Origin: an uncultured virus (IMG/VR IMGVR_UViG_3300037488_003116)
Taxonomy: Duplodnaviria > Heunggongvirae > Uroviricota > Caudoviricetes
Length of the DNA: 64,000 nucleotides
Strand: one strand, 5' to 3'
IMG/VR virus record: IMGVR_UViG_3300037488_003116
Below, one piece after another: positions 1-56,233 of the stretch. Both the position numbers and the translations under genes were made by a program. The first letter of the stretch is position 1, and each line of letters begins with the position of its first letter. Below the pieces are notes generated by a model. The model did no database searches, was not told where the DNA came from, and saw only the letters and a list, made by a program, of their open reading frames with translations.

Positions 1-311
1 CGACCGATATCCATGCCTTTTTCTCTGCCACTGACATTGTTTCAATCCACGCACCCGTGAAGGATGCGACCCTAGATCCAGTCCATAGTTTATCGGTATA
101 TTGGTTTCAATCCACGCACCGTGAAGGTGCGACAGCATGCAAAACGTTTAATTCGAGAGGCATATAAGTTTCAATCCACGCACCCGTGAAGGTGCGACAT
201 AAAATTCGAGAGATAGCCCGTGGAGTTTTTCAATCCACGCACCCGTGAAGGTGCGACGTGATTTTCCTCTCAAAATCGTTGGGAATTTGTTTCAATCCAC
301 GCACCCGCGAT
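1..311 (-). CRISPR. Type I-C CRISPR array, running off the left edge; repeat consensus in crRNA sense GTCGCACCTTCACGGGTGCGTGGATTGAAAC
   Basis: Repeats at 39-70, 104-133, 168-198 and 227-257, a deleted copy at 289-311 and a partial copy at 1-4. Spacers are 34, 33, 34, 28 and 31 nt. The CGCACC/GGTGCG stem and ATTGAAAC 3' end are typical of I-C. Lies directly downstream of cas7. Confidence 0.97.
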
Positions 312-321
312 CCTCCGTAAA

Positions 322-345: not shown

Positions 346-1320
346 TTATTCCGTAGCTTCTTCCTCCCCTTGGGAGGCACTTTCTTTGTCCCCCGTTGAG
401 AGTACCGCTCCAAAAGCTCTGATGTCATAATACTGTCGGCAGAGAATTTTCTGAGCTAGGGCTGAAGCATCTTCTTTCGCTTCATACAGTGCTTTGACTT
501 CTGCATCTGTATCGTACGGTCGGCTGATAAGGTCGTTGAGAATCTTCCCTTCCTGGAAGAAAATTTCACGATGAGCAATGCCCTTCTGGCTCTCTATTAT
601 GAATTGCCGGATTTTTCGTTTGAGGCAGACATCAGTGACTAATCCTAAGTATGAGATAGGGTCCCGACGAGGGCGGTCATCCGCATCGGGGTCTCCGTTT
701 GGATTGCCGTTTTTAACATCAAAGAACACTATATACTCAATTCGGTTAGATATCGGCTCGAAGGTATTTGTGCCGATTGTACTAAGACAAGTACTATCAA
801 TAGTGAGCTCGGTCAACTGTACAGTCGGAGGAAGTCCCTCTCTGTCAACTTTGATTTCGTAATCCAGGAAAGACTTCGGAGATTCTTTGAATGTCGCCGA
901 AGGGGTGGCTGTAATACGGTCGAATATTTCATATGCCGGGACATTGCCGTATTTTGAATTGTGCTGGGCTTTAAAGACTTTCCGCACATACATCTCACCA
1001 CGACGAGAGGCATGATCATCTGTAAAAAGATTCATTAGGGCGCATTCGAATAGGCGAAGATCCGTGGAATCAAATCCCGATTTTTCTGCATCAGAAGGTG
1101 ATACAAAGACTCTAAATTGATACAGCGCATAACCGATCCGATGTTTGGTGCCCATAGTCTGAGCTTTGTCACTGTCTTTTTCATTAGTGACCATGCTACG
1201 GGTAATAGACATTGAATCAATAACGATCGGATGAAGGGATTCTGCCATTGTTAGTTGGACAGGACCACGGACCCGACCGGCAGTTTTACGGAAAGCTTTC
1301 TTGGCAGTTTTTTGAGCCAT
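346..1320 (-). CDS. cas7c: Type I-C Cas7 (Csd2), circularly permuted
   Basis: Contains Csd2 motifs GRVRGPVQLT, SITR, TMGTKH, RGEM, NGNPNGDPD, VTDVCLKRKIR and DIRAFGAV, with the two halves in swapped order. Confidence 0.95.
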   Translation of the reverse strand: MAQKTAKKAFRKTAGRVRGPVQLTMAESLHPIVIDSMSITRSMVTNEKDSDKAQTMGTKHRIGYALYQFRVFVSPSDAEKSGFDSTDLRLFECALMNLFTDDHASRRGEMYVRKVFKAQHNSKYGNVPAYEIFDRITATPSATFKESPKSFLDYEIKVDREGLPPTVQLTELTIDSTCLSTIGTNTFEPISNRIEYIVFFDVKNGNPNGDPDADDRPRRDPISYLGLVTDVCLKRKIRQFIIESQKGIAHREIFFQEGKILNDLISRPYDTDAEVKALYEAKEDASALAQKILCRQYYDIRAFGAVLSTGDKESASQGEEEATE

Positions 1321-1362: not shown

Positions 1363-1731
1363 TCAGTTTGCGGACTTTTTGTATCGTTCTTGAGTCTGAT
1401 GATAGAGACCTAACACATATTCCGCTTGTTGCTCCATTGACAACATTAGCGGTACTTGATCCATTTTGCAGACAATTTGAGACAACTTTTTACTAAAATA
1501 CACATACAGGCCACGATTAATTCTTCTCAACTTCGCCAAATGAGCCTGTACTTTATCGTCGAGATCTTTGAGCATCATTCCAGGTGTCGTACCTAATGAG
1601 GCACGATAGCGATCATTGAAAGATTTATTAGGGCCTCCATGACCTATTGACGCTTCCTGGATCTCATTGGCTACTACCAGAAAACGTCCCAGTAGATAAC
1701 CGATACCTGTGGCTTCTTCGTCCAATCCCAT
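1363..1731 (-). CDS. cas11: Cas11c small subunit from an internal in-frame start in cas8c
   Basis: AAGGAG Shine-Dalgarno 7 nt before the in-frame ATG of MGLDEEATGIGYLLGR; 122 aa. Internal Cas11 translation is established for type I-C. Confidence 0.75.
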   Translation of the reverse strand: MGLDEEATGIGYLLGRFLVVANEIQEASIGHGGPNKSFNDRYRASLGTTPGMMLKDLDDKVQAHLAKLRRINRGLYVYFSKKLSQIVCKMDQVPLMLSMEQQAEYVLGLYHQTQERYKKSAN

Positions 1732-3060
1732 ATCGAACTCCTTTCTTCCTTCTTTTCGGTATTTACGGTTAAGATATCCTTTGACAAGAGCTATGCGACT
1801 ACGACGCATACCTTTTGGTTTGAGACATATTTCTATTGAAGTATGGACTGCGTGATATGGGTATTGTTCCCCTTCGAGGACTGATTGTAAGAGCGCCTGA
1901 TAAATAGACTTGTGAGGAATTTCATTACTGCCGTTACCAATGCATGCCCAGGCCAGACTTTTTAAGGATATTTGGTAGGGGTCAATCGCGATATCCTTAA
2001 CATGCTGATGAATCTTTTTGACAATATCTTCTATAGTGTGCTCGAAAAAATGTCGCATATAGATCCGGCCATTATTTCCGGACAGCACTGCCAGGCAGAA
2101 ACGGTCATCAGCCGGGCCCTCCTCTGTAGGTAGATCGGGCATTATCCCATTGCGGATGGCCTCTATTGCATTCTTGAGAATGGCCTCAGTTTCTTCCTCA
2201 TTTTTATTGAGGATATAGTTCACTATTCGACAAATGAGCCCATTCTTTTTTCTGGAAGTCCATAATACTACTGTGTCTTCTCCAAGGACTGAACGATGGT
2301 TCGTATCAGGCCCTGTGAGGAAATAATTGAGTACCGTTCGATAACCAAACTCAGCCTCACAGCTTATGGGGGCAATATCAGCATCATAGGAGACATGCGA
2401 AGGCCTGTTGAAGCTGACAAAGGACCCACCTGTAGGGGCTGTTCCCTGGACGCCTTTTATTTTTCCATGGCATTTTTTTAGCCCCCCAACCTTTCCGGTT
2501 ATCGTACAAAAGCCAGTTATGTCAGGACTTTTATTAATACCTTCCCAGTATTTCACCAGTCTGGGTATCTCATGCAGATATTTACCCCCTACCCGAAGGA
2601 GAATGAAACCATCCCTGTATTTGTTATCACTCACTGCCTTATCTAAAGCCTCTTTAATAATTGGATCGGCACAGTCCCTCCAACTGGTTAGAAAGACAGT
2701 CAGAGCAAGTAACTCGGGGACATGGGTTTTGTCGTAAATGTCCTGGTGTTGCAGGATGAATTGATCCAGATTCTTAGACCCATTTTTATGCACATTATAG
2801 ACTATTTCTTTGCCCTGTATGGCACAACCCCAAACATATTTTAAATTATCATGAAAGTAGCAGGCTTTTACACCACTAGTCCTGACACCCATATCTGGTA
2901 ACCGGGCTGGCTTATTAGCCACTTGAAAAGAAATAAACTCACCAGCTAAATTAATATCCAAACAGTAGGGTGCTTTTTGATCGGCATAACCATACGAGGG
3001 GAAGTTTATGTCCTTGTCATTTTTGTGCACCTGGAAATAGTCATAGAGTTGTTTGATCAT
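1363..3060 (-). CDS. cas8c: Type I-C large subunit Cas8c (Csd1)
   Basis: 565 aa; motifs RTSGVKA..DNLKYV, CTITG, H.KIKGV, FVSFN, LSGNNGRI, GYLLGR and YVLGLYHQ; lies between cas5c and cas7c. Confidence 0.95.
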   Translation of the reverse strand: MIKQLYDYFQVHKNDKDINFPSYGYADQKAPYCLDINLAGEFISFQVANKPARLPDMGVRTSGVKACYFHDNLKYVWGCAIQGKEIVYNVHKNGSKNLDQFILQHQDIYDKTHVPELLALTVFLTSWRDCADPIIKEALDKAVSDNKYRDGFILLRVGGKYLHEIPRLVKYWEGINKSPDITGFCTITGKVGGLKKCHGKIKGVQGTAPTGGSFVSFNRPSHVSYDADIAPISCEAEFGYRTVLNYFLTGPDTNHRSVLGEDTVVLWTSRKKNGLICRIVNYILNKNEEETEAILKNAIEAIRNGIMPDLPTEEGPADDRFCLAVLSGNNGRIYMRHFFEHTIEDIVKKIHQHVKDIAIDPYQISLKSLAWACIGNGSNEIPHKSIYQALLQSVLEGEQYPYHAVHTSIEICLKPKGMRRSRIALVKGYLNRKYRKEGRKEFDMGLDEEATGIGYLLGRFLVVANEIQEASIGHGGPNKSFNDRYRASLGTTPGMMLKDLDDKVQAHLAKLRRINRGLYVYFSKKLSQIVCKMDQVPLMLSMEQQAEYVLGLYHQTQERYKKSAN

Positions 3061-3689
3061 CTTTTCACCTTTGGGTCATTGGGGGGCGGTACAGACATAT
3101 AGCCATCGACAATCTCGGCTTTAAAGAAAGCTGGAGTATAGGTCCCGTAATCTATACTATGAAGTACATACCCTAGCTCCTTTTTACCTTGTAGAGCTGA
3201 TTGTGGTATCTCGTTTTCACGTATGGGCTGAAATAAGTCTACCGAGAACTCTCGACACCCAAAGTAGGGGTGCCTGAAACATTGACCCCTGCTAGCCCTG
3301 CGAAGAAAAATAGAAAGGTGCTTACCGGGGTTATCCGTTCCAGAAACAACTTCGAAATGTGCTTCAATGACATAATCCACATTAGTCAGGATCGTGGCAT
3401 TACGCTGGTCGCGCATTTTCTCACAATCGAAGGGCTTCTGAGACTTATTTAGTACGTTACGTTGTGAGATCTTGTTTTTTATACCGTTTCGCAGAAGGGA
3501 GATTGTTTTGATGGGGTTGAGTACATAAATGCCATCAACTACCCATTTCATTTCTGGTTTGCGATAGATGCACTCAAGAATGGCCTTTGCAGCAGTAGGT
3601 GTCATTACATCATAAGTGACAGATTCTGCCTTGAGGTCGGGCCTGGTGAAACAGGCCCATCGTCCTGACACACGTAATAAAACGGGCAT
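3057..3689 (-). CDS. cas5c: Type I-C Cas5 (Cas5d), crRNA-processing subunit
   Basis: Motifs WACFTRPDLKAESVTYDVMTPTAA, VLNPIK, VDYVIEAHF and GQCF..PYFGCREF. Confidence 0.96.
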   Translation of the reverse strand: MPVLLRVSGRWACFTRPDLKAESVTYDVMTPTAAKAILECIYRKPEMKWVVDGIYVLNPIKTISLLRNGIKNKISQRNVLNKSQKPFDCEKMRDQRNATILTNVDYVIEAHFEVVSGTDNPGKHLSIFLRRASRGQCFRHPYFGCREFSVDLFQPIRENEIPQSALQGKKELGYVLHSIDYGTYTPAFFKAEIVDGYMSVPPPNDPKVKR

Positions 3690-3900
3690 AATTATCTACT
3701 CCTTATGTTACCCAAAAAAGTCTTTCATTTGGTTTTTATTTCTTGCAGAATCCATGAGAAGAACGATTTTATGGAAAGCATTCTGATAGCGGGTTCGTTT
3801 CTCTTTGTCCGGGAGGGCTTCAATCTGCCCTTGAATCGGGAATAGTGCCAAGGACAATTTGTCTGAAGAACAGGTTTCATAAGCCATGCTTGCAATAATT

Positions 3901-6943: not shown

Positions 6944-7855
6944 TTAGACTGTTTGAAGGACTTTCTTGGCCTGGTACTTCTCGGATTTGTAGGTAGCCCA
7001 CTGAGCCCTGTGCTCCCGAATGAACTGGTCATAGGCTTCCTTATCCTGGACCTGGATCTCATTCCTGGCCACCTTGTTATGCAGACCAACACAGTAACCC
7101 GTGACCTGAAACACACTGATCTCTGACGACAGCTCTTTCTTCCTGAATGCGACACAGAGGTCAGAACTGATCTGTCCATTGCTGGGCAGGAACAGCTTTT
7201 TCAGGATCTTGGCCTTCTCATCTGCTCTCAGGTCTCGTATCTTCCGGGGCCTGTGTCCGTTCTTCGGCTTCCGGACAGCAACCGGCAGACATGCATCCCG
7301 GCGCTTGCTGACTCTGATAAAGGTCTCTTTGATCTCATCGCATTTGTGCTGAATGAAGGAGAAAGAACAATCGAGTTTTTCACAAACCTCTTCAATCTTG
7401 AGACCCTTCTGGCGATAGTCAAGAATCCTTCTATCCGTGGGAGAGAGTCTCCGTTTCACTTCCTCATAGATGCCCTGATAATCTATCTTGTTCTCAAGCT
7501 CCATCTCATTCGCCATATCATCGGGGATAGCTTCCATATCATCCTCAGAGGAGGAGGCATTCAGCTCCTGCACGTTTATCTGAGGGTAACGGGATTTCCG
7601 TTCTTGTTCTTTGTCGACAGCATGCCGGGCTACCTGCTTGGCAGTGTTGGTAAACCAGGTATGTATCTGCGTTCGAGAACTGTCATAGGCGTTCAAGAAA
7701 TTATGTCTTTCCAATCTCACAAGCATGTCCTGTTTGAGATCGCCAATCTCTATGACATGGCGATACTTCCAGGTAACGGCGTTTAAAATTCTTTCAATCT
7801 CAGGTGCATTCAGTTGATAAAATTCCCAAAATCCCTGACAATAGATGAGACTCAT
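6944..7855 (-). CDS. Sigma-70/ECF-like sigma factor with an extra C-terminal domain
   Basis: Region-2-like DLKQDMLVRL...YDSSR..IHTWF and region-4-like LSPTDRRILDYRQKGLKIEEVCEKL helix-turn-helix, plus a ~110-aa extension. Confidence 0.7.
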   Translation of the reverse strand: MSLIYCQGFWEFYQLNAPEIERILNAVTWKYRHVIEIGDLKQDMLVRLERHNFLNAYDSSRTQIHTWFTNTAKQVARHAVDKEQERKSRYPQINVQELNASSSEDDMEAIPDDMANEMELENKIDYQGIYEEVKRRLSPTDRRILDYRQKGLKIEEVCEKLDCSFSFIQHKCDEIKETFIRVSKRRDACLPVAVRKPKNGHRPRKIRDLRADEKAKILKKLFLPSNGQISSDLCVAFRKKELSSEISVFQVTGYCVGLHNKVARNEIQVQDKEAYDQFIREHRAQWATYKSEKYQAKKVLQTV

Positions 7856-8623: not shown

Positions 8624-8861
8624 CTCCTAAATTAATTTGTGCACTAAGTATTTGGCAAGGCATTTGTGGTTTTTGACTGGCTGACTTGCCGGGGGCTATT
8701 GTGCCACCCCCCGCAAATGGTGCAGAAGTAGGGTAATATCTTGTTATCGCTATTCTCACCTATACCCTGGTTGGAATAACTTGCGAATCGCTGTGCCTTT
8801 TCTTGTGATTGAAACCGCTTCTTTTTTTCACAAACTATATTGCCCATTTTCCTCCCTCCCA

Positions 8862-44000: not shown

Positions 44001-45416
44001 TCATTCTTCCTCCCTCTTAAATTTGATCTGAGCTGTAGTGCATTCAGACGGATCTACGTCATCCCGGATCTCTTTGAAGCTGGGCTGATATAGATGCCCA
44101 TGCTGTCCATTGACGTAGAGGTATTTGATCTCGGCGATTGACCCAATCGGGATGGGCATCTTGCTGGCGGCAACCGTGCAGTAGCCCCTGAATTCCCAGG
44201 TGCCCTGCTGGTTCAGGAGTTCCAGACCGATCGAGTTTTTACCTGGTCGTCCGGCACAAACTCGTGCAGAGAGTTCTGCATAGAACTTGTGCTTGAGCAT
44301 ATCCCCACCGGTTGAAGGTCGTCCGGCAGAGACCCTTGCTGTGAGCTTCTTGAAAACAACGCCTTCTCGTTTCTCCCTTTTGAACTGCTCATACATGAAT
44401 CGTTTATCTGTCCCAACATAGAGGGGGACTAATATAATCCCTGATTGGGAAGAAGCGAACAGCCTACGGAGTTCGATGTATCTATTGTTGTAATCATATC
44501 CTCGGAGGTCAGTTATAAACTCCTCGTGGATGTCAAAAACGTGAAAGTTATCCCCTATCTGCTCTCCATCTAAGAGCAGGTGAGTGTTTCGTAGAGACCA
44601 ATCTTCAAGGACTGGGATGACGCTATGAATGAAGGAAGGCGACGCGGTAACTAAGATTCCCTTCTTGTTCGTGACCCATAGACCCGGTTCAAAGACTCCT
44701 TCCCCTATCGACAATGCCTTCCGCTTCCATTCGAGCATCTTATGGGTGCCGTCTTTCTTCTCTTGAAGTCCCCAGTCCGGGTCATCGAGCAGACGCTCCG
44801 CCGTCTCCTCGTCGATCTCGTTAAGGAGCTGGGGGTAGTTACCCGTCTGGATTTTCTCACCTGGCGACATGGCCTGGGTCTCGGGGACTGGCGTGCTGGT
44901 TATAGGTGTAACTGGTTTACAAGGTGTCACAGGTGTTGCGTCTGGATTGTCCCAGAAGATCTTCCTGCGGTGGACATGGCGAGCGGGCTCTGTGTTAGGG
45001 GGAGTTACAGGTGCCGGAGGAGTCTCAGTCCGGAGAGCTGTGGCCATGCCTGAGACCCCCGGAGCAGGCCGAGTATGGAGGGCTTCAGGGGCGACCCCGT
45101 TGTCCCATTGGATGGCCTCGTAGCCTTTAGCCAGCTTACTGTTCAAGAGGGATTCAAAAACTTTTAGGGCCTTCTCGTAGGAGACTCCCCCATCAGCAGT
45201 TTTTGTCCAGGGCACCAGGGAGGCACCTCTCCGTCCAGACTGTGCCTCTACCCGGTAGGTGAGCTGGGCGGATTCTTGCCCGCCCGCGATTTCTTCTGTG
45301 AATTCTTCCTCGTGCTCATTCAACTGGATGTCATAGACCTTATCACTGCTCCCTTCGTTGCACCAAAGGGAAACGCTTCTAAGAGTACGCATGGAAACGC
45401 TTCTAAGAGTACGCAT
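44001..45416 (-). CDS. WGR-domain ATP-dependent DNA ligase
   Basis: N-terminal EGSSDKVY...GRRG...K..KGY, Pro-rich linker, QEKKDG, LLDGE, FDI, EGVVFK, LKHKF and an OB-fold EIKYL...LYQP....R.D. Confidence 0.85.
   Translation of the reverse strand: MRTLRSVSMRTLRSVSLWCNEGSSDKVYDIQLNEHEEEFTEEIAGGQESAQLTYRVEAQSGRRGASLVPWTKTADGGVSYEKALKVFESLLNSKLAKGYEAIQWDNGVAPEALHTRPAPGVSGMATALRTETPPAPVTPPNTEPARHVHRRKIFWDNPDATPVTPCKPVTPITSTPVPETQAMSPGEKIQTGNYPQLLNEIDEETAERLLDDPDWGLQEKKDGTHKMLEWKRKALSIGEGVFEPGLWVTNKKGILVTASPSFIHSVIPVLEDWSLRNTHLLLDGEQIGDNFHVFDIHEEFITDLRGYDYNNRYIELRRLFASSQSGIILVPLYVGTDKRFMYEQFKREKREGVVFKKLTARVSAGRPSTGGDMLKHKFYAELSARVCAGRPGKNSIGLELLNQQGTWEFRGYCTVAASKMPIPIGSIAEIKYLYVNGQHGHLYQPSFKEIRDDVDPSECTTAQIKFKREEE
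45369..45416. repeat. Perfect 24-nt tandem duplication of the ligase gene start
   Basis: GGAAACGCTTCTAAGAGTACGCAT twice, giving MRTLRSVS twice. Confidence 0.9.
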
Positions 45417-45709
45417 CTCGTGTCTCCCTTCTTAGGGTGAGGGTTAATCAGGCCAGAGCCCGTGCTCGGACAGGATGACGGTTACTCGTTCGAGGGAGTC
45501 GGAATTGAGTGGCGTGTTAGGGTCAAGTATACTGTCGTTGAGGGGGGTATATCCTGTCCCCCCATTGAGCCAGACTTCGGCGATGTCCAGAGTAAACTGC
45601 TCTAGATCTCCTCTGCTGGCGGTTTGAACTTTTTGCCGGAGGTCTCCAAAAGTTTTCATTCTTAACTTTTCCTTTCTGAACTTTCACAAATTATATTGAA
45701 GGGGTTAAT

Positions 45710-45740
45710 GTCGCACCTTTATGGGTGCGTGGATTGAAAC
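45710..45740 (+). CRISPR. Solitary type I-C repeat 1
   Basis: GTCGCACCTTTATGGGTGCGTGGATTGAAAC; two differences from the array consensus, both in the loop. Confidence 0.9.
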
Positions 45741-46520
45741 CTTATTGCAAGTGCATCAAAAGGGTTTACAGGTCTTGAGGGCCTCACTAAGAAGACCCTC
45801 CTATTAAATGGCTTCTTCTTGGGGGCTTCCGATACGGTGGGTTTGTATGCCTTCCCGTGCTCATAGGCCGCCTGCTGTTGAACATCGGTACTCTGGAATT
45901 GCTCTCCTCGTACTCCTTTACGGAAGGCGTCAAGTAAATGTGTTCTCGATAAATATTCCCATTCTACTTCGCAGACGGGGCATGTCCAGCCGAAGTCACG
46001 CTTATGCGTTTTACATCTCCTCATTCAGATCTCCTTTACTGGAAGGCAATTTTCTTTTCTTTACAGAAGGCATAGAGCTTCTCTTCAAACAGAAAGCTCA
46101 TTGTTGAGTAGCTCCCGTCTTTTCCTGAATAGGTTTTGGTCTCGGTATCAAAGACTCCGGTGAAGGGAATAGCCAGCACTGTTCTGACTCCTGAGTTCAG
46201 GAGAGGGGCATACCCGGCAGAACAGATAACGACTGTTGCTATTTTCCTTCCCAGAAGTTCCTCGCTGTCTTTCTTATACCTATCAAACTTTGCAAATCCC
46301 GGATGCTGATCGAACACGAGGACGAATGCCCCAATCCCATTCCAGTTCCTTATGACAAGGTGATTATTCTGATCTATGGGGATATTAATGCCAAAGGCCT
46401 TCCCAATGCGATAGACATCATCACCTTTATAGGTTTTGTGCCCGTTCTTCCTCAACCACCGGAGAAACTTGCGACAAATTCTCCGGTAGTGCTCATCGTC
46501 TGATTCCCAAAAGAATTTCA

Positions 46521-47060
46521 TCAGTTCTCCTTCCATATGATTCTGCGACCGGGGGACACCAGTAGTAAGGGCCCGCTCGCCTCCATCAGCAGTTTAGTCT
46601 GGACTGGCGTCGGGCCAGACTCGAAACCCAAAGGCTCGCTGGCATCAATCCACCCGTGATCGTCCGGATCTTCCCCCTGATATTCTACCACACCCGATAA
46701 GGTATATCCTCTCGGAGTTAAAACATTATCGATGATGTACTTGAGCCACTTGCGGTACTCATAGAACTTCTCGCCCCCGTCCCATTCTATACCGTTGTGG
46801 TCTTCAGTCGGTGCCCATAGACACCACAGACTTGGCTGGGTACGGGGTGGTCGGTCATAATCGAGAACAGTAACATCTCCGGGCTCTTCTCTGCCGTCTA
46901 CAAAGAACTCCCCCTCGATTCCGTACTTACTGGTAAGAAGGGGGCTGAATTTGCGAGCCACACGCCGGGTCTCGTTGAGCTTGACAAGAAAGGAATATGT
47001 CTCTTCGTCAAGGGGCTTGTTTAACCAGAAGCGCCCGGTGAATTCTGTCGTATACCCCAA
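46521..47060 (-). CDS. Hypothetical phage protein (MGYTTEF-type) with C-terminal RRIIW
   Basis: GGAGG before a TTG at 47060; QPSLWCLW...IEWDGGEKFY...WLKY. Confidence 0.65.
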   Translation of the reverse strand: MGYTTEFTGRFWLNKPLDEETYSFLVKLNETRRVARKFSPLLTSKYGIEGEFFVDGREEPGDVTVLDYDRPPRTQPSLWCLWAPTEDHNGIEWDGGEKFYEYRKWLKYIIDNVLTPRGYTLSGVVEYQGEDPDDHGWIDASEPLGFESGPTPVQTKLLMEASGPLLLVSPGRRIIWKEN

Positions 47061-47312
47061 AGTAAACCTCCTTCTATATGTTATTCCACAGTATGAACTC
47101 TGATCTTGGGCTGTGCACAGAAAGAGCCGTAGCACTGTAGCATGCGTCAATCATCCTTCTCGCACTGTCAAGTATTGACTTATCGGAAGGTTCTCTCTCT
47201 GTCTCAGTCCTGACCTTTACATTTACTGATATGCCGGTTGACCGGGGATAGCCACGGACACCCAGTGGCTTCCCCAGACTGACCTGTGCCCGGCAGCACC
47301 ATATGCACGCCA

Positions 47313-47636
47313 TTATTCTTTCCAGATTATCTTGCGGGGTTTGACCGTCTCTCTGGCGGGTTCCGCTTCCTTGCCCCTCACGGGAATCTGCTCCCGGATA
47401 GCCGTTGACCGGTGCTCTTGCGTTCTGTCAACCCCGATCCTGGTGCAAGTCCGATCGGCGTTGCCAGACTCAACTGCACGGGTATGTTTACACTCCCGTT
47501 CTTTGTCCGCCTTCTTCATGCACCAGCCGGGACATCCACAGCTCGTGTGCCCGTCAGCATACTGGAGGGTCTCATACTCCTTGTCCGAGGATGAGGATTT
47601 GAAATACCACGACTTTACTATGTCGTTGCTACTCAT
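47313..47636 (-). CDS. SWIM zinc-finger protein with C-terminal RKIIW
   Basis: SSSSDKEY...SCGCPGW...CKH. Confidence 0.75.
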   Translation of the reverse strand: MSSNDIVKSWYFKSSSSDKEYETLQYADGHTSCGCPGWCMKKADKERECKHTRAVESGNADRTCTRIGVDRTQEHRSTAIREQIPVRGKEAEPARETVKPRKIIWKE

Positions 47637-48470
47637 ACTATTCCCCTTTCTTCCTCACTATTCGTTTTACTTTTCCGGTGACGATCCCGTCTGCCCGGAC
47701 TGCTACTGAATTAGTGGCCGGTAGGATCTCGGTTACATAACCGATCGTGCCGTCTCTGAGCACTACTTGATCCCCAATTTCTGCTTTCATTCATACCTCC
47801 TTAACGGAACTTTTCAGGGTGTAACATTCTCAGGGGATGTCCTTGGGGAACATCCTTGATTCGTATGCCGTAAATCTTCCGGTTCTCTTTCTCAAGGTCT
47901 CGTCCATTGAACAGGAAGTTATTGGTCTCAGTCCACGTTTCTACAGAGCGGTTATAGGGCTGGCCTTCGACGAACGGGAAGCGTACTCCAGACTGGTTAT
48001 CGACGGACTTGATGACCCCGCCTTCGACGACAATCGTGATCGTCCTCCGATGACGGGATGTAAGAACTATTGTCTGGTTCATAGTGGGGCAAATGAGGCC
48101 GGTTTAGGATTTTTCTTCTTCTCACTGAAAAGCTTGTCCAAGTTTTTCTGCTTCTTGATCTCAGCTCGGACATCAGACGCCGTAAGTCGGTTGGCATATC
48201 GCATATGATAAGCGTCCCCGACATCCAGATGAATCAGATGGACGGGCTTCAGGGAGTACACCAGGTAACGGGCATACCCATCGCCGACCGGGAACCGGAT
48301 CTCCTCTCCGGCCTCGGGACAGGTCTGGGAGTCCTTGAGTGCCTGCTTCAGGCGGGCAATGACGGCTTCACAGTCTTTCTCGTACTGGTCATACTTGAAA
48401 CCGCTTTTCTTGACATAGGTTTCCATCTTTGGAAGGTCAAACCCTTTAGGGGGCCTGAATATTTGAGCCA

Positions 48471-49472
48471 TTAGTCCTCCTTGTTAAGGGCGTTACATAT
48501 TCTTGTGCAACAGACTGGTTCCTTTTTATCTTCTCTGAGGAAGCCCTGAGACGCAGTATGAATATGACATCTTTCTATTTTGTCGTAGACATGCCATGAT
48601 CTACCACCGTCTTCATAATCAAAATGTTGAACTTCATATCTCGTCTCTGTTTTAGGTGGTTCCTCGTCGGGTTCTACATCAGGGAACTCTTTCCCTTCAA
48701 TAAGGGATACACTGAAGTCATACCCCTCTTCTCCACAAGATTTAACCCGAATACCGGCTCGTTCCATAGCCTCCTCAAACAGCTTTCTGGTACTGTATAT
48801 GAAGGTCAGATTGTACAGAACACGCTGATACTCACGCTCGATGCCTTCACTCTTATTGTGTAGGATAATCTCCCCTTTGCCCTTCAGATACTCCTTGAAT
48901 CTTCCATGGAGCTTTCGTTCAAGGATCCTTTTACGAATGGCCTCAAACTTCTTATGGGTCTCCTCATAAGTTATGTGCTTTTTGCTCTCTTTGAGGTGCT
49001 CTAATAGCTCATCTGCATAGGACTTGAGCATCAGGGGGTCTTCAGCATATCGCATATTGAAAAAGGCGTGCTCTGCAAAAGACATCTTCATGCCGAGGTC
49101 TGAGTGGGGATCAAGAGTAGCGATCCTCTCACCTAACAACATGCCATGGCCAAGCACGGCACCGAGTAAGGTCCGGAGAGGCTTGCGCCCTTGGCCCTTA
49201 TCTTCATAGGCAACGTGGGGCAGGCTTACCCGTGTGACGAACGGGGGAGAGCAGACTCCCCCATCGCCGTGGCCCTTGAAGGCCTTGAGCAGGGCCTTCT
49301 CGTCAAGTGTATCCATGTCCTGATAGTCCTGATAGTTCTTTATATATTTCCGGTACTCCTTGGGTTCAGCTTTGATGTTCCAGCGCTTCTTAATGAATCG
49401 GAGGATTGCGTCCATTTCATTCGAGAAGTTAAAATTCATGTAGTTATTCAGATCGCATAGTTTATAGCTCAT
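48471..49472 (-). CDS. Hypothetical protein
   Basis: 333-aa ORF coupled to neighbours. Confidence 0.65.
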   Translation of the reverse strand: MSYKLCDLNNYMNFNFSNEMDAILRFIKKRWNIKAEPKEYRKYIKNYQDYQDMDTLDEKALLKAFKGHGDGGVCSPPFVTRVSLPHVAYEDKGQGRKPLRTLLGAVLGHGMLLGERIATLDPHSDLGMKMSFAEHAFFNMRYAEDPLMLKSYADELLEHLKESKKHITYEETHKKFEAIRKRILERKLHGRFKEYLKGKGEIILHNKSEGIEREYQRVLYNLTFIYSTRKLFEEAMERAGIRVKSCGEEGYDFSVSLIEGKEFPDVEPDEEPPKTETRYEVQHFDYEDGGRSWHVYDKIERCHIHTASQGFLREDKKEPVCCTRICNALNKED

Positions 49473-50733
49473 CCTTCAATCGCTCCAGACGGGAATGCCC
49501 CACTCCGCCACTGCTTGGCCACGAGTGCGTTCCTGGTCGGGTCGAAGAATGACGGGGTGTAGTGGTAGGTCCTGTTTCCAATCGTGTATGACCTGTTGAC
49601 AATGAACTTGTTGTCCGGAGTCCTCAGAATGAACAGGTACAAGAGCTCAGCCATCAGGGCGTCGTGCTCAGCGTACAAGGTCTTAGCGGCCGCAATCTGC
49701 GTGCGTAGTGCTTCCAGACGATCGAACTTGGCTTGGATGGCCTGTTCCATCTGGGAGACTGAAGGGGACAAGGAGACCGGGGGCGTGCGTCGTGTTCTTG
49801 GCATAAAAGTAACCTCCTGAAAATAGGATTAGGATTGAGTGCAGTGTTAGTGGACACAGGGCGGGCGTAGCGTAGTAAGGCTTGCCCTACTCGATGAGAG
49901 TGATAGAGCTCCGACTCTCATGGGCATCTTGTTCGGTCGGGTCTCCATCAAGGCGAACAATGACTGTGTTCTGCATGAAGGCTTGATAAGCCCTCTGCTC
50001 AGGATCGCCCTCTGTGTCAAAGTCCTCAAGCTCGTCATGGATGACGGTGGCCTTACCCTTGTCGGTAAGAACCCGATCCCCAGTCTCATAGACTGGGGTT
50101 GGAATGTTAATGATCTTCATCTGTTCTTGTCGCTATTGACGATGATGGACATCTCTCGTTCCAAGGCCCGGGCATAGGAGTCAGGACTATCACAGGTGCC
50201 TCGGATTCTTCGGATGGCCCTCTCGGTCGCATTGAAGCGACCCTTGATGGGCCATTTGCCCGAGTCATCCTGCTGTCTGAACAGCCGGTTGATGACTCGG
50301 GTCTGGCCCAGAGGTGTATCGCTCTTCTTCCATGCAATACTCAGGATCTGCTCTGCTGACTTTGTCTTCATCGCCCATCCGCCCATAGTTCATAGGCAGC
50401 TTCCTTCGCTGCCTCATCGCATGCTTCGAGATAGTCAAAGATCTTAATCGTCATCTCGTTGTCATCAATCAGGCGAGAGAGATCGATTGCCGTTATGGGT
50501 TGCTTAGACAGGACTACCCGTTCAATCTCTATCTGGGCATCCTCGTCCGGCTCCAGGGGCGGGCCGAACTTGCCGTCTCGGGCTCCCTTACAGGCCGGAG
50601 AGTAGTGGTAATGAACATCAACCTCATACTCCTTGTCCGTGTACCGAGACAGGATTTTTGTCGTAAATATATTCGTGAATGAGGCCATTTATTTCCTCCT
50701 AGTCTAACCATAGACTATATTGAAAGGGTTAAT

Positions 50734-50763
50734 GTCGCATCTTTACGGTGCGTGGATTGAAAC
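50734..50763 (+). CRISPR. Solitary type I-C repeat 2
   Basis: GTCGCATCTTTACGGTGCGTGGATTGAAAC; stem kept with one G-U pair; intergenic. Confidence 0.9.
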
Positions 50764-51807
50764 CTTATAGGTTATTCTTGTACGAAGTCAAAATAGAATC
50801 TCGGGTTATTCTGAAAGCATAGGGAACCCCTGACTAGGTCTGACTTCCTTGTGACTACGACGTAAGGGGCACGGAAGCCACTCACTACGAAGTCCTGACC
50901 AAGTTCCTGGGTGTCCCATACCTTCCCGTGTTTCTGCTCCAGCTCCTCACGGGCCGTGGGGCTCTGGTTGATTTCCTTCACAAGAGACCGACGAACGGAC
51001 TCGGTTTCATCAATGGGCATGGCGTGCTCCTTGTCGGGGGTTAAAAACGTTACTCTCTACTCGAAGAGAGACTGAACCTCTTCTGCGGAAGTCTTCGTCT
51101 GCTCCTTGAATCGCCCACATGGAATTGTAGATGTAGAGATCCTTATTCGGATCTCCTGAGGGCTTTCTCGTTCGCAGATACTGTTGCATACTGTCTACAA
51201 GGTGCCCGTCTTTAGTCATCCTCTTCTTGATCAGGTCATAGCCTCGCTTATTCAGAATGACCTTGAGGTGATGGAGAAGTCGGGACTCACCTTTCGCATA
51301 CAAAATCCCACTGAAGCGGGGGTCGCCCTTCTCTCTGATTACTTGGCAGTTGCCCGGACTCATTTCAACTTTCATTGCTACCTCCAGTTACATTATTTCA
51401 GAAGCTCAACGATACTCTCAGCTTCGCTAAGCATTTCCTCATGGCCACCTGAGTGACCCTTATCATAAGCGATACCGATAAGCGTTGAAGCTTTCGGGTG
51501 ACCTTCAATTCCGAGGTGCTTGATAACATCGTCGTTCCATTTCTCGGGGAAGTCCTTATAGAAACCGGCTCGAAGACGATCCCGAATATTCGAAGACTTG
51601 TACATCTCCTGACGCTTTTTCTCTGCACACTCGGGACAAAGAACGCTTCGAAGCTCTTTGACTTCGTTCTCGATGCAATTCGAATGGCAGGTACGATTGA
51701 TTTCCCACTTCTGATCCTCAGCCTCTTTGAGATTTTTTACAACCGTAATACTTTTGCCACATTTGCAACTGATTGTCCAGCTCTCGTTTTTCTTAATCAT
51801 ATTCTCC

Positions 51808-52416
51808 TCATCCATGCATCTTCATGTAAGTCGAATAAGCTATGGGAGTTATAACGTACCACTCACCCATCGGGCTGTCATGGTGGAAGTTCTGCATGGC
51901 CAGCTTCTTCCCGTGTCTGACTTTGAAGAACCGATAGATGCACTGTGTATCAGGAAGAGTCTCTCGGAGCAACTCTTTGCCGTCCTGAACCTTCATGTAC
52001 TTGTATCCTGTTTGCTTTCGCCAGCCGAAGTCATTGACATTAACCCTGAAGTACATGGTCTCCCCGTTCTGGGTCTTGGTCAAGGCTCTCAGGGCCTGAG
52101 TCAGTTCTTCGTTCAGGTCATTGAAGGCCATCTCGAAGATGTCCTGATCTTCTAAGACTTCAGAACGAATTTCCTCTATGAGTTTGTTCTTGATCTTCAA
52201 GATCTCCTGCTCGGTACGTTCTCCTTTGATGCCCGGATGACCCATGACTTCTTTAGCCATGGCCTCGGACAGCCGTTGAAGATAGTCCTCGTTGTTTTCT
52301 TCCGTCAGGTACGTGACCTGACCATCGGTGATATCAGACTCATCCCAGCCACAGATGGGCGTAGTGATCTTGACTGGGGCCAGAGCCTTGACTCTTATAA
52401 GTTCTTTCTTGTCCAT
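51808..52416 (-). CDS. Hypothetical phage protein
   Basis: 202 aa; AGGAG RBS; HHDSPMGE motif. Confidence 0.6.
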   Translation of the reverse strand: MDKKELIRVKALAPVKITTPICGWDESDITDGQVTYLTEENNEDYLQRLSEAMAKEVMGHPGIKGERTEQEILKIKNKLIEEIRSEVLEDQDIFEMAFNDLNEELTQALRALTKTQNGETMYFRVNVNDFGWRKQTGYKYMKVQDGKELLRETLPDTQCIYRFFKVRHGKKLAMQNFHHDSPMGEWYVITPIAYSTYMKMHG

Positions 52417-55624: not shown

Positions 55625-55649
55625 GATAGACTCCTTGAAAATTGTTTTG

Positions 55650-55678
55650 AAAAAGAAAGGGGGGAAGAACTCCCCCCT
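55650..55678 (-). terminator. Rho-independent terminator
   Basis: Minus strand GGGGGAGTTCTTCCCCCC hairpin followed by TTTCTTTTT. Confidence 0.6.
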
Positions 55679-55681
55679 GTG

Positions 55682-56188: not shown

Positions 56189-56233
56189 GGAACTCCTTCC
56201 TTTAGAGGAGGGAGGGGATTTCTCCCCTCCTCG

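Follow-up and report, generated by a model that had tools for sequence, protein, structure and literature searches.

Comparison with related sequences indicates that each of the two solitary CRISPR repeats found in this phage-like element belongs to a discrete unit of about 72 nt, that this unit is an insertion, which is new here, and that both copies are recent gains by the element. The window, that is, the whole stretch of 64,000 nt that was analysed, also contains the element's own cas5c-cas8c-cas7 genes and a small CRISPR array, which are located 42-50 kb away from the solitary units. Judging from these sequences, we give a probability of roughly one in three to the view that the unit is mobile, is transcribed from the plus strand as a guide containing a single repeat, and targets the empty sites of relatives while sparing its carrier.

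Both units have the same layout: TTTCCT, 18 variable nt, an 18-nt flank and a CRISPR repeat. Unit 1 (45668..45739, plus strand) is an exact 72-nt insertion; its flank is found at 45692-45709 (plus strand) and its 31-nt type I-C repeat at 45710..45740 (plus strand), the final C being contributed by the target site. Unit 2 (50692..50762, plus strand) has 71 nt when its repeat is counted without the last C. Its conserved flank, TATATTGAAAGGGTTAAT, occupies 50716..50733 and its 30-nt type I-C repeat 50734..50763, both on the plus strand, and this repeat has a 6-bp stem with one G-U pair, a 5-nt loop and an intact 11-nt 3' overhang. CTTAT follows the repeat directly in both cases (45741-45745 and 50764-50768). 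The succession of flank, repeat and CTTAT in a gap between minus-strand genes (50716-50768), which was the core of the original prediction, holds for unit 2, which occupies a genuine gap, with ORF 50772-51020 on one side and ORF 50368-50688 on the other. Unit 1 is intergenic only in part, since ORF 45719-46024 enters the repeat and stops within it. Allowing up to two mismatches, the 16-mer GTGCGTGGATTGAAAC occurs seven times in the 64 kb (0.02 expected), five times in the array (39-304, minus strand) and twice as a solitary repeat (plus strand), and an nhmmer profile of the repeats returned the same seven copies in the 64-kb window and no degenerate extras. The 18-nt flank occurs exactly twice in the 64 kb (0.07 expected), and further copies of the unit, which had been thought worth looking for, are not present in the window. 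The repeats are solitary in the sense that their flanks contain no second repeat-like sequence and that the nearest other copy is 5 kb off.

The Cascade genes of the element are encoded on the minus strand, are all full-length and comprise cas7 of type I-C (346..1320; Pfam Cas_Cas7, E 2.8e-79), cas8c (Csd1, 1363..3060; Pfam Cas_Csd1, E 5.4e-107) and cas5c of the pre-crRNA endonuclease family (3057..3689; Pfam Cas_Cas5d, E 4.3e-31), whose product matches the type I-C Cas5 sequences of PDB entries 7KHA and 8DEX (E 1e-52, residues 3-209). The array (1..320, minus strand) runs off the start of the window and contains four full repeats of 30-32 nt and a leader-proximal repeat (289-320) that is truncated at its 5' end. 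Its spacers have no self-targets in the window, for which Rfam and tRNA scans gave no matches either. Repeats like those of the element are present in plasmids of Bacillus, Treponema, Tistrella and others and give no information on the host. According to PMC8524198, a type I-C repeat has a 2-nt 5' overhang, a stem of about 7 bp, a 4-5-nt loop and an 11-nt 3' overhang that ends in ATTGAAAC, and Cas5c requires the stem base and this overhang, reading the cut site and the overhang and not the loop. Folds and alignment show that the solitary repeats fit this description. All differences among the six full repeats, solitary and array, are confined to the loop and upper stem, and neither the base of the stem nor the 11-nt 3' overhang shows any variation. 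The solitary variants recur in the array, as had been noted before, with GCATC in the repeat at 39-70 and the 30-nt length in the repeat at 104-133.

The insertion is apparent from relatives that lack it. At site 1 the unit is missing in all four relative sequences, and at site 2 in all three bridging contigs. In the alignment with L109, a more distant relative, exactly 45668-45739 is missing, showing that unit 1 is a clean insertion for which nothing was deleted, and the joint 45667>45740 in a contig of run X3 skips the same 72 nt. The 101-aa ORF at 45719..46024 (minus strand) has its C-terminus altered by unit 1 from ...IRS to ...IRFQSTHP, and both of its database homologues end in ...IRS or ...TRS, like the empty allele. 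Site 2 is bridged without the unit by contigs of runs X1, X2 and X3 (joints 50682>51018 and 50681>51179), of which the X3 joint retains CCTTATAGGTTAATCTTG with a right-hand flank that is 17/18 identical. A contig of X3 has a copy matching 45690-45740 at a third site, between 50122 and 50378 and in the same orientation, giving three copies in all, two read directly and this one deduced. The junction on the right falls precisely at the end of the repeat, and the one on the left varies between the units: a clean joint is lacking in unit 2, where a stretch of about 18 nt that includes the start codon region has been replaced. The 106-aa ORF (50368..50688, minus strand), which is located downstream of unit 2 in the gene sense, has first codons unlike those of the relatives. 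The 82-aa ORF just upstream of unit 2 in the gene sense (50772..51020, minus strand) is missing along with the unit in X1 and X2; it has 11 homologues in public data and belongs to no known family. Searches of the neighbouring small proteins against PDB sequences gave nothing meaningful. The ancestral sites of both units are gene junctions, in surroundings rich in gene-sized indels between relatives (15 joints listed), and the units are located at indel boundaries.

Since no relative has either unit at the same site (0/4 and 0/3), there is no sign that the unit has spread. Annotated phages and plasmids contain no match for 44001-52000, protein searches with ORF 48471-49472 and Cas8c yielded no relatives in IMG/VR, and the cassette has 0 matches in JGI metagenomes. 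Its three matches in GTDB genomes all lie within long arrays and were set aside as chance. Pattern searches of IMG/VR gave 97 loci for GGGTTAATGTCGCA and 78 for ATTGAARGGGTTAATG, none of them followed by a repeat; L117, one of the latter, was flagged as a repeat by the pattern and is not one. None of the eight loci found with GTGGATTGAAACCTTAT has the flank; three are ordinary arrays, one has two repeat ends at a contig edge and four are not repeats.

Copies that are lineage-specific in this way would also fit an inert scar or a selfish repeat without a present function, either a by-product of recombination with the end of a CRISPR array, for instance an escape in which a PAM was replaced by leader and repeat, or a MITE-like sequence that is mobilised by an enzyme whose gene lies elsewhere. 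A single crossover in spacer-protospacer homology would explain why the right junction is precise and the left one variable, the insertion does remove a PAM, and the array is irregular in appearance and has no adaptation genes to maintain it. However, TTTCCT (6/6) and the flank (17/18) are nearly or fully identical between the units, as is the part of the repeat relevant to Cas5c, whereas the spacer is identical at only 5 of 18 positions, the chance level. By this comparison, the identity profile is a pattern of selection rather than that of a fresh scar. Moreover, the clean insertion of unit 1 argues against a scar, the window contains no transposase or integrase, and the units have neither terminal inverted repeats nor a target duplication. 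The near-identity of the two flanks and their difference from the array leader had both been part of the original prediction, and both stand: the leader of this array is unrelated in sequence, which excludes it as the source of the flank, and no arrays with a flank-like leader were found in GTDB genomes or JGI metagenomes. We regard an inert scar as a somewhat unlikely explanation.

The strand from which the unit acts can be judged from the folds and promoter signals. The hairpin and its extension by the flank are predicted to be far more stable in plus-strand RNA, with -20.8 kcal/mol versus -11.7 for the minus strand in unit 1 and -14.1 versus -6.0 in unit 2; on the minus strand, the hairpin is 8-9 kcal/mol weaker because G-U pairs turn into A-C mismatches. 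In unit 2, AAGG and TTAAT of the flank pair with ATTGA and CCTT in the region of the repeat's 3' end, and shuffling the flank gave a fold at least as stable in 0.4% (unit 1) and 4% (unit 2) of the trials. On the same strand, TTCCT and TATATT are exactly 17 nt apart in each of the units, the distance of TTCCT to the downstream ATG being different, and the composite TTCCT-N17-19-TATAWT occurs in the 64 kb only at the two units (0.17 expected). At unit 2 this promoter-like spacing (TTCCTC, 17 nt, TATATT; 50693..50721, plus strand) fails the sigma-70 consensus scan, which detected neither a promoter nor a terminator at either cassette on either strand. The invariance of the stem base and overhang, the plus-strand fold and the lack of a sigma-70 promoter together suggest that the most likely role of the unit is to yield a plus-strand RNA bound by Cas5c, not to provide the minus-strand genes with a promoter. 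The original prediction had left this choice open. Its crRNA-like option gains support from the pattern of repeat variation, the plus-strand fold and TTCCT-N17-TATATT. The minus-strand arrangement that it described is present in so far as the -10-like hexamers (TATAGT at 50714..50719 in unit 2, TATAAT at 45690-45695 in unit 1) are followed by a ribosome-binding site and an ATG (at 50688 and 45659); a -35, whose region the repeat was thought to cover, is not present, and no promoter is called there. The idea of a promoter or hairpin at operon starts is weakened accordingly, and relatives without the unit join both genes via one Shine-Dalgarno sequence, so that the sites are not ancestral operon starts.

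A role on the gene-sense strand could also be that of a cis-acting regulatory or recombination cassette similar to the PeSLs of T4-type phages, in which the reverse-complement hairpin would end or stabilise the upstream message, TATAAT or TATAGT together with the Shine-Dalgarno AGGAAA would restart the next gene, and recombination between copies would shuffle small genes. This would be in line with the position of the units at gene junctions amid gene-sized indels, with the single orientation relative to the genes in all three copies, and with -10-like hexamers 14-16 nt before the Shine-Dalgarno sequence, as in other candidate promoters of the window. In addition, the unit provides the downstream gene with a new Shine-Dalgarno sequence once the old one has been split, as happened to the native one of the 71-aa ORF downstream of unit 1 in the gene sense (45444..45659, minus strand). 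PeSL cassettes, made up of a promoter and a stem-loop, are described as driving such shuffling (PMC2839356, PMC4122927). However, the minus strand has no predicted promoter or terminator, lacking both a -35 and a U-tract, its hairpin is the weaker one, and a cis-acting cassette would have no reason to keep the single-stranded 11-nt overhang that CRISPR repeats have. The motif of the flank is absent from the rest of the 64 kb and is thus not a general promoter of the element, and PeSLs are numerous in a genome, against only two copies here. We consider this explanation quite improbable.

The target site is what links the unit to a possible guide function. Both insertions split the same Shine-Dalgarno 9-mer, ACT^CCTTAT, the empty sites reading ACT^CCTTAT or ACT^CCTTGT; the sole unoccupied target of this kind in the window, ACTCCTTAT, is located in the Shine-Dalgarno region of cas5c (3698..3706, plus strand). 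The unit thereby interrupts a PAM-like CTC, being inserted between CT and C. In B. halodurans, X. albilineans and L. pneumophila, CTC functions as a type I-C PAM (PMC5602111; 10.1101/2021.10.18.464778), and GAAAC, the repeat end, served as a non-target control in the second of these studies. It should be noted that CTC is forced by the complement of the Shine-Dalgarno sequence, and the PAM may therefore be a coincidence of inserting into a ribosome-binding site. The would-be guides consist of native DNA after the repeat (unit 1, 45741..45774; unit 2, 50764..50797; both plus strand), and their first 5 nt, CTTAT, are common to both. The guide of unit 2 is antisense to the 3' end of ORF 50772-51020, as predicted earlier, which follows from its position alone. 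At the empty site of L109, CTC is found directly upstream of a match to the would-be guide of unit 1 that is 35/40 identical, with mismatches at positions 4, 9, 29, 33 and 34. For the idea of a crlRNA, which was rejected, guide matches elsewhere in the window are at chance level only; the 10-nt match upstream of cas5c (3889-3898) has AAA at the PAM position.

According to our preferred view, each cassette would be mobile and self-contained, belonging to the type I-C system that the element itself encodes. A weak promoter-like box within the unit would drive transcription on the plus strand, antisense to every gene around it, and the 11-nt handle with the adjoining native DNA would be loaded into Cas5c-Cas8c-Cas7 as a one-repeat guide. 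With the unit located between CT and C of the PAM, such a guide would match relatives without the unit and direct Cascade to their CTC and protospacer, and the carrier would be spared because the repeat end AAC takes the place of the PAM. This targeting, and the use of the unit as weapon or marker when related elements come into conflict, are the least certain steps. Several observations count against a guide. Neither cas3 or another nuclease nor cas1, cas2 or cas4 was detected by Pfam among the 116 ORFs of the window, outside of which lie about 13.9 kb of the 77.9-kb contig. The -35 of the promoter-like box matches at 2 of 6 positions, there is no second repeat or terminator to set the 3' end of the guide, and the mismatch at guide position 4 in L109 falls in the seed. 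Furthermore, the predicted extended stem covers part of the handle and could hinder the loading of Cas5c or Cas7. A literature search of limited depth found no description of one repeat guiding against an empty site. A more far-reaching version, which we find very doubtful, is a protein-free CRISPR gene drive: the guide would send Cascade, with a nuclease encoded by the host or elsewhere, to the empty allele of a co-infecting relative, and repair templated by the carrier would copy the unit there, along with genes linked to it, for example the 82-aa ORF. Rare jumps to new ACT^CCTTAT sites would then yield new guides, and the irregular array, with its truncated first repeat and repeats of 30-32 nt, may itself be an assembly of these units.

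Viral CRISPR repeats that occur singly are at present interpreted as decoys by which host immunity is blocked. In this case, such a Racr-like plus-strand RNA would tie up the Cas5c and Cas7 proteins made by a type I-C system of the host in dead complexes and so shield the element from host CRISPR, the flanking sequence having no role in targeting. The sequence evidence for a plus-strand, Cas5c-competent RNA applies equally to a decoy, and a compact hairpin of very high predicted stability would suit it. Viral solitary repeat units work in this way, the type I-C RacrIC1 being among those tested (PMC10651486), and other mobile elements, such as the Streptococcus satellite Javan145, have lone I-C-like repeats antisense to flanking genes. 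However, the repeats match the array and Cascade of the element itself, whose own system would be poisoned too, and a decoy leaves the identical 9-mer target and the exact junction at the repeat end unexplained. The neighbouring ORFs, being without known family, provide no link to an acr gene. Overall, we hold a decoy to be unlikely. In the element analysed, the Cascade to which the repeat belongs is that of the carrier; the repeat moves as a 72-nt unit and lands where PAM meets target. If it does act as a guide, a single repeat would serve both as weapon and as self-protection in conflicts between sister elements, would constitute the simplest RNA-guided selfish element so far described, parallel to the guide RNAs of TnpB, and would point to a way for arrays to grow in the absence of Cas1-Cas2. 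If it does not, the locus still indicates that mobility and site specificity can occur in solitary repeat units.

With the viral solitary repeat units and Racrs (PMC10651486) the unit shares a single repeat outside an array in a mobile element, placed 3' of a promoter-like box and with a cognate-like fold, although within the 250 bp upstream, where a Racr is expected to have a promoter, only TTCCT-N17-TATATT and no consensus promoter was seen. Unlike those units, which are described there as unassociated with cas genes, this one accompanies a matching cas5c-cas8c-cas7 set and array, is present in two copies, has a common flank that extends the hairpin, and was recently inserted at one 9-mer target. 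The mini-CRISPR arrays of the viruses SPV1 and SPV2 (PMC6858448, PMC11656645) are similar in being a minimal CRISPR part with a guide that matches close relatives, for which competition between elements has been proposed. However, they have at least two repeats around an acquired spacer, whereas the unit has a single repeat, with the adjoining DNA of the carrier as its "spacer"; the matches to relatives (35/40 with L109 for the DNA that follows unit 1, 17/18 with X3 for that of unit 2) reflect homology of the locus and not acquisition, and self would be told from non-self by the insertion itself. PeSL cassettes (PMC2839356, PMC4122927) are likewise short stem-loop cassettes that sit between small genes, in a hyperplastic region with indels among close relatives, but they have many copies, act in the gene sense, and contain a strong sigma-70 promoter and a working terminator, neither of which is predicted at the units, whose stem-loop is a CRISPR repeat facing the other way. 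The crlRNAs, CreA and their viral copies Cracr (10.1101/2024.10.29.618823) are comparable as repeat-derived RNAs that reprogram Cas proteins beyond ordinary immunity; these RNAs carry a partial match to the promoter of a cas or toxin gene, whereas neither would-be guide has such a match in the window. Concerning MITEs and IS200/IS605 elements, a fixed target is seen here, but no inverted repeats, duplication or transposase; the 116 ORFs of the window include no transposase, TnpB or integrase, and the unit itself contains no transposase or nuclease gene. The type I-C Cascade is unrelated to TnpB, so that the likeness concerns the working principle and not family membership. In the TnpB and IscB guide RNAs of IS200/IS605 (10.1101/2023.03.14.532601, 10.1101/2023.11.20.567912), which cut vacant sites, the scaffold is located at the end of the element, the flanking DNA is the guide, and the adjacent motif abuts the target only at a site without the element, a logic that the unit would share.

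The string that the original prediction placed at 50716-50768 was confirmed letter for letter on the plus strand, as an 18-nt flank (50716-50733), a 30-nt repeat (50734-50763) and CTTAT (50764-50768). Its sister copy, also on the plus strand, occupies 45692-45745 and has a 31-nt repeat. With at most two mismatches, the repeat core GTGCGTGGATTGAAAC has seven copies in the 64-kb window versus 0.02 expected, five at 39-304 (minus strand) and two solitary ones on the plus strand. The proposed scan for further copies of the unit, run on the 64-kb window, located the flank at only two places (0.07 expected), and a profile search of the window added no weaker repeat copies. Each copy belongs to a longer unit that also includes TTTCCT and an 18-nt variable spacer (unit 1, 45668-45739; unit 2, 50692-50762). 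Aligned from their left ends and compared segment by segment, the two units are identical in TTTCCT (6/6) and CTTAT (5/5), match at 17/18 positions of the flank and at only 5/18 of the spacer, which is chance level, and have three differences in the repeat (two substitutions and one 1-nt indel). The 17-mer TTTCACAAACTATATTG at 8826-8842, with no adjacent repeat, matches the unit 1 variable spacer and flank start at 16/17 positions, which may be chance (E ~0.05-0.1).

Contigs of four metagenome runs from freshwater or sediment were aligned to 44001-52000, and the relatives found there are 80-99% identical to the window, with gene-sized indels at at least 15 joints. This region is hyperplastic, with indels at gene boundaries between relatives (e.g., 46025-46520, 46027-47053, 47722-48303, 47868-49468 and 51390-51809). 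On these alignments, both units are insertions. At site 1, exactly 45668-45739 is missing from a contig of run X3. The same stretch of 72 nt is missing from the related JGI contig L109, which can be aligned to the left and to the right of it and encodes a neighbouring 471-aa protein with 76% identity to that of the window. The ORF at 45719-46024 runs into the repeat and ends in ...AIRFQSTHP; its only two database homologues, on a 1475-nt Logan contig and a 4032-nt JGI contig, terminate as the empty allele does (...AIRS and ...ATRS). Unit 1 is thus absent from 4/4 relative sequences, some of which may share source populations. At site 2, contigs of runs X1 and X2 join 50682 to 51018, so that unit 2 and an 82-aa ORF are both missing, and an X3 contig joins 50681 to 51179, with the right-hand flank of unit 2 (17/18 identical) directly after ...ACT and no unit; among the matches listed, unit 2 is absent from 3/3 bridging contigs. 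A 51-nt piece matching 45690-45740 aligns in one X3 contig between 50122 and 50378, which by this alignment is a third site, oriented as the other two copies. The 82-aa ORF (50772-51020) adjoins unit 2 and belongs to a conserved small-protein family with 11 homologues in public metagenomes, among which F, P, R, K, D and G positions are invariant; Pfam, PHROG and PDB gave no match.

The empty sites, which read ACT^CCTTAT at both positions (ACT^CCTTGT in L109), already contain CTTAT and the final C of the repeat, so these are target sequence. This 9-mer is the complement of the usual Shine-Dalgarno sequence of the element, AAGGAGT, and its one further copy in the 64 kb, at 3698-3706, is unoccupied and is the Shine-Dalgarno sequence of cas5c. 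Unit 1 was inserted cleanly, with neither loss of bases nor target duplication; on the left side of unit 2, ~18 nt were replaced, including the start codon region. The split Shine-Dalgarno sequence is replaced by AGGAAA of the unit on the gene-sense strand. An inert scar or MITE-like repeat would suit such lineage-specific copies, but is at odds with how selectively parts of the two units are conserved, and we regard it as a possible but rather unlikely account.

The window, 64 kb of a 77.9-kb source contig, begins within a small minus-strand CRISPR array (1-320) with four full repeats (30, 31, 31 and 32 nt); of a fifth, leader-proximal repeat only the 3' half remains. The array is irregular: one repeat has a final A in place of C, the full spacers measure 28-34 nt, and spacers 2 and 3 have the 10-mer CTCTCGAATT in common. 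Directly upstream, also on the minus strand, are cas7 (346-1320), cas8c (1363-3060) and cas5c (3057-3689), the last encoding a full-length protein related to the type I-C processing endonuclease of D. vulgaris (E 1e-52). Pfam detects no cas1, cas2, cas3, cas4, transposase or integrase among the 116 ORFs of the window. Huge phages are reported to have type I-C variants lacking Cas1/Cas2 as well as Cas3, together with spacers against other phages (PMC7162821). Nearly all genes are on the minus strand and the majority have no known family; 44001-52000 found no similar sequence in annotated phage and plasmid collections. We call the source a phage-like mobile element, with PHROG matches present and structural genes absent from the window.

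Four lines of evidence from sequence and computed folds point to the plus strand as the relevant one. In the six full repeats, every difference lies in the loop or loop-proximal stem, and the stem base and 11-nt 3' overhang are invariant; Cas5c cutting is described as requiring the cut site and 3' overhang, not the loop or 5' overhang (PMC8524198). With the unit 2 substitution, plus-strand RNA has a G-U pair where its complement has an A-C mismatch. The flank is computed to pair with the 3' end of its repeat as well as the target CCTT, extending the hairpin to -20.8 kcal/mol on the plus versus -11.7 on the minus strand for unit 1, and -14.1 versus -6.0 kcal/mol for unit 2; shuffled flanks were equally or more stable in 0.4% and 4% of trials, respectively, values that are not independent because the units have the flank in common. 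Finally, TTCCT precedes TATATT by exactly 17 nt in both units and the distance from TTCCT to the downstream ATG varies, which agrees better with -35/-10 spacing than with a constraint from a Shine-Dalgarno sequence. This composite motif, derived from these same copies, occurs in the window at the two units only. Against the plus-strand reading, a scan for consensus signals detects neither a sigma-70 promoter nor a terminator on either strand of either unit, which also runs contrary to the probable promoter predicted on the other strand. A 303-aa ORF (6944-7855) that weakly matches a sigma factor (PHROG 1740, E 2.8e-06) and an HTH domain could direct element-specific promoters. Minus-strand G+C-rich hairpins at 55625-55681 (followed by a T-run) and 56189-56233, in gaps before two genes, indicate that ordinary terminator-like hairpins exist in the element, unlike the repeat units. 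A cis-acting cassette resembling PeSL, the promoter plus stem-loop of T4-type phages, would suit both the hyperplasticity of the region and the replacement of the Shine-Dalgarno sequence, but is not borne out by the tests of promoter, terminator and strand and seems distinctly improbable. Of the two original alternatives, the cis element is weakened by those tests, and the crRNA-like unit is putatively favoured by the strand evidence. The RNA evidence is also consistent with a decoy like the RNA anti-CRISPRs (Racr; PMC10651486), which we consider unlikely: it leaves the target unexplained, and the element's own Cascade would be inhibited too.

We give about one in three to a guide directed against unit-free relatives. 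The plus strand would be transcribed and Cas5c would cut at the stem base, leaving an 11-nt handle and, after it, native DNA sequence. This guide sequence would be preceded in the carrier by AAC, the repeat end, which a published assay used as its non-target control (10.1101/2021.10.18.464778); where a genome lacks the unit, it would be preceded by CTC, reported to work as a type I-C PAM in three systems that have been studied (PMC5602111; 10.1101/2021.10.18.464778). With CTC there versus AAC in the carrier, the guide would recognise relatives without the unit and spare the carrier. Its weak points are that the PAM is imposed by the RBS sequence, that no nuclease was found in the window, that the guide has no defined 3' end, that the handle is partly buried in the computed stem, that L109 has a mismatch at guide position 4, in the seed, and that neither unit is at the same site in any relative compared, which gives no sign of spread.

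Viral solitary repeat units, including a tested type I-C case, are already in print (PMC10651486). The Streptococcus satellite phage Javan145 (locus L188, 401-431; also Javan156 and Javan89) has one type I-C-like repeat flanked by the integrase gene and the gene after it; the repeat is antisense to these two genes, has an incomplete copy of the handle ~45 nt upstream and resembles an ordinary solitary repeat unit. What is new here is a lone repeat tied to the carrier's own Cascade and array, in a mobile unit with defined limits, a common 9-mer target within a PAM-like site and a hairpin-extending flank. Literature searches, at the level of listings, found no printed description of a one-repeat guide against an empty site. 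The logic of the proposed guide would be that of TnpB guide RNAs, as reported for vacant sites (10.1101/2023.03.14.532601, 10.1101/2023.11.20.567912), and its proposed purpose matches that reported for viral mini-arrays (PMC11656645).
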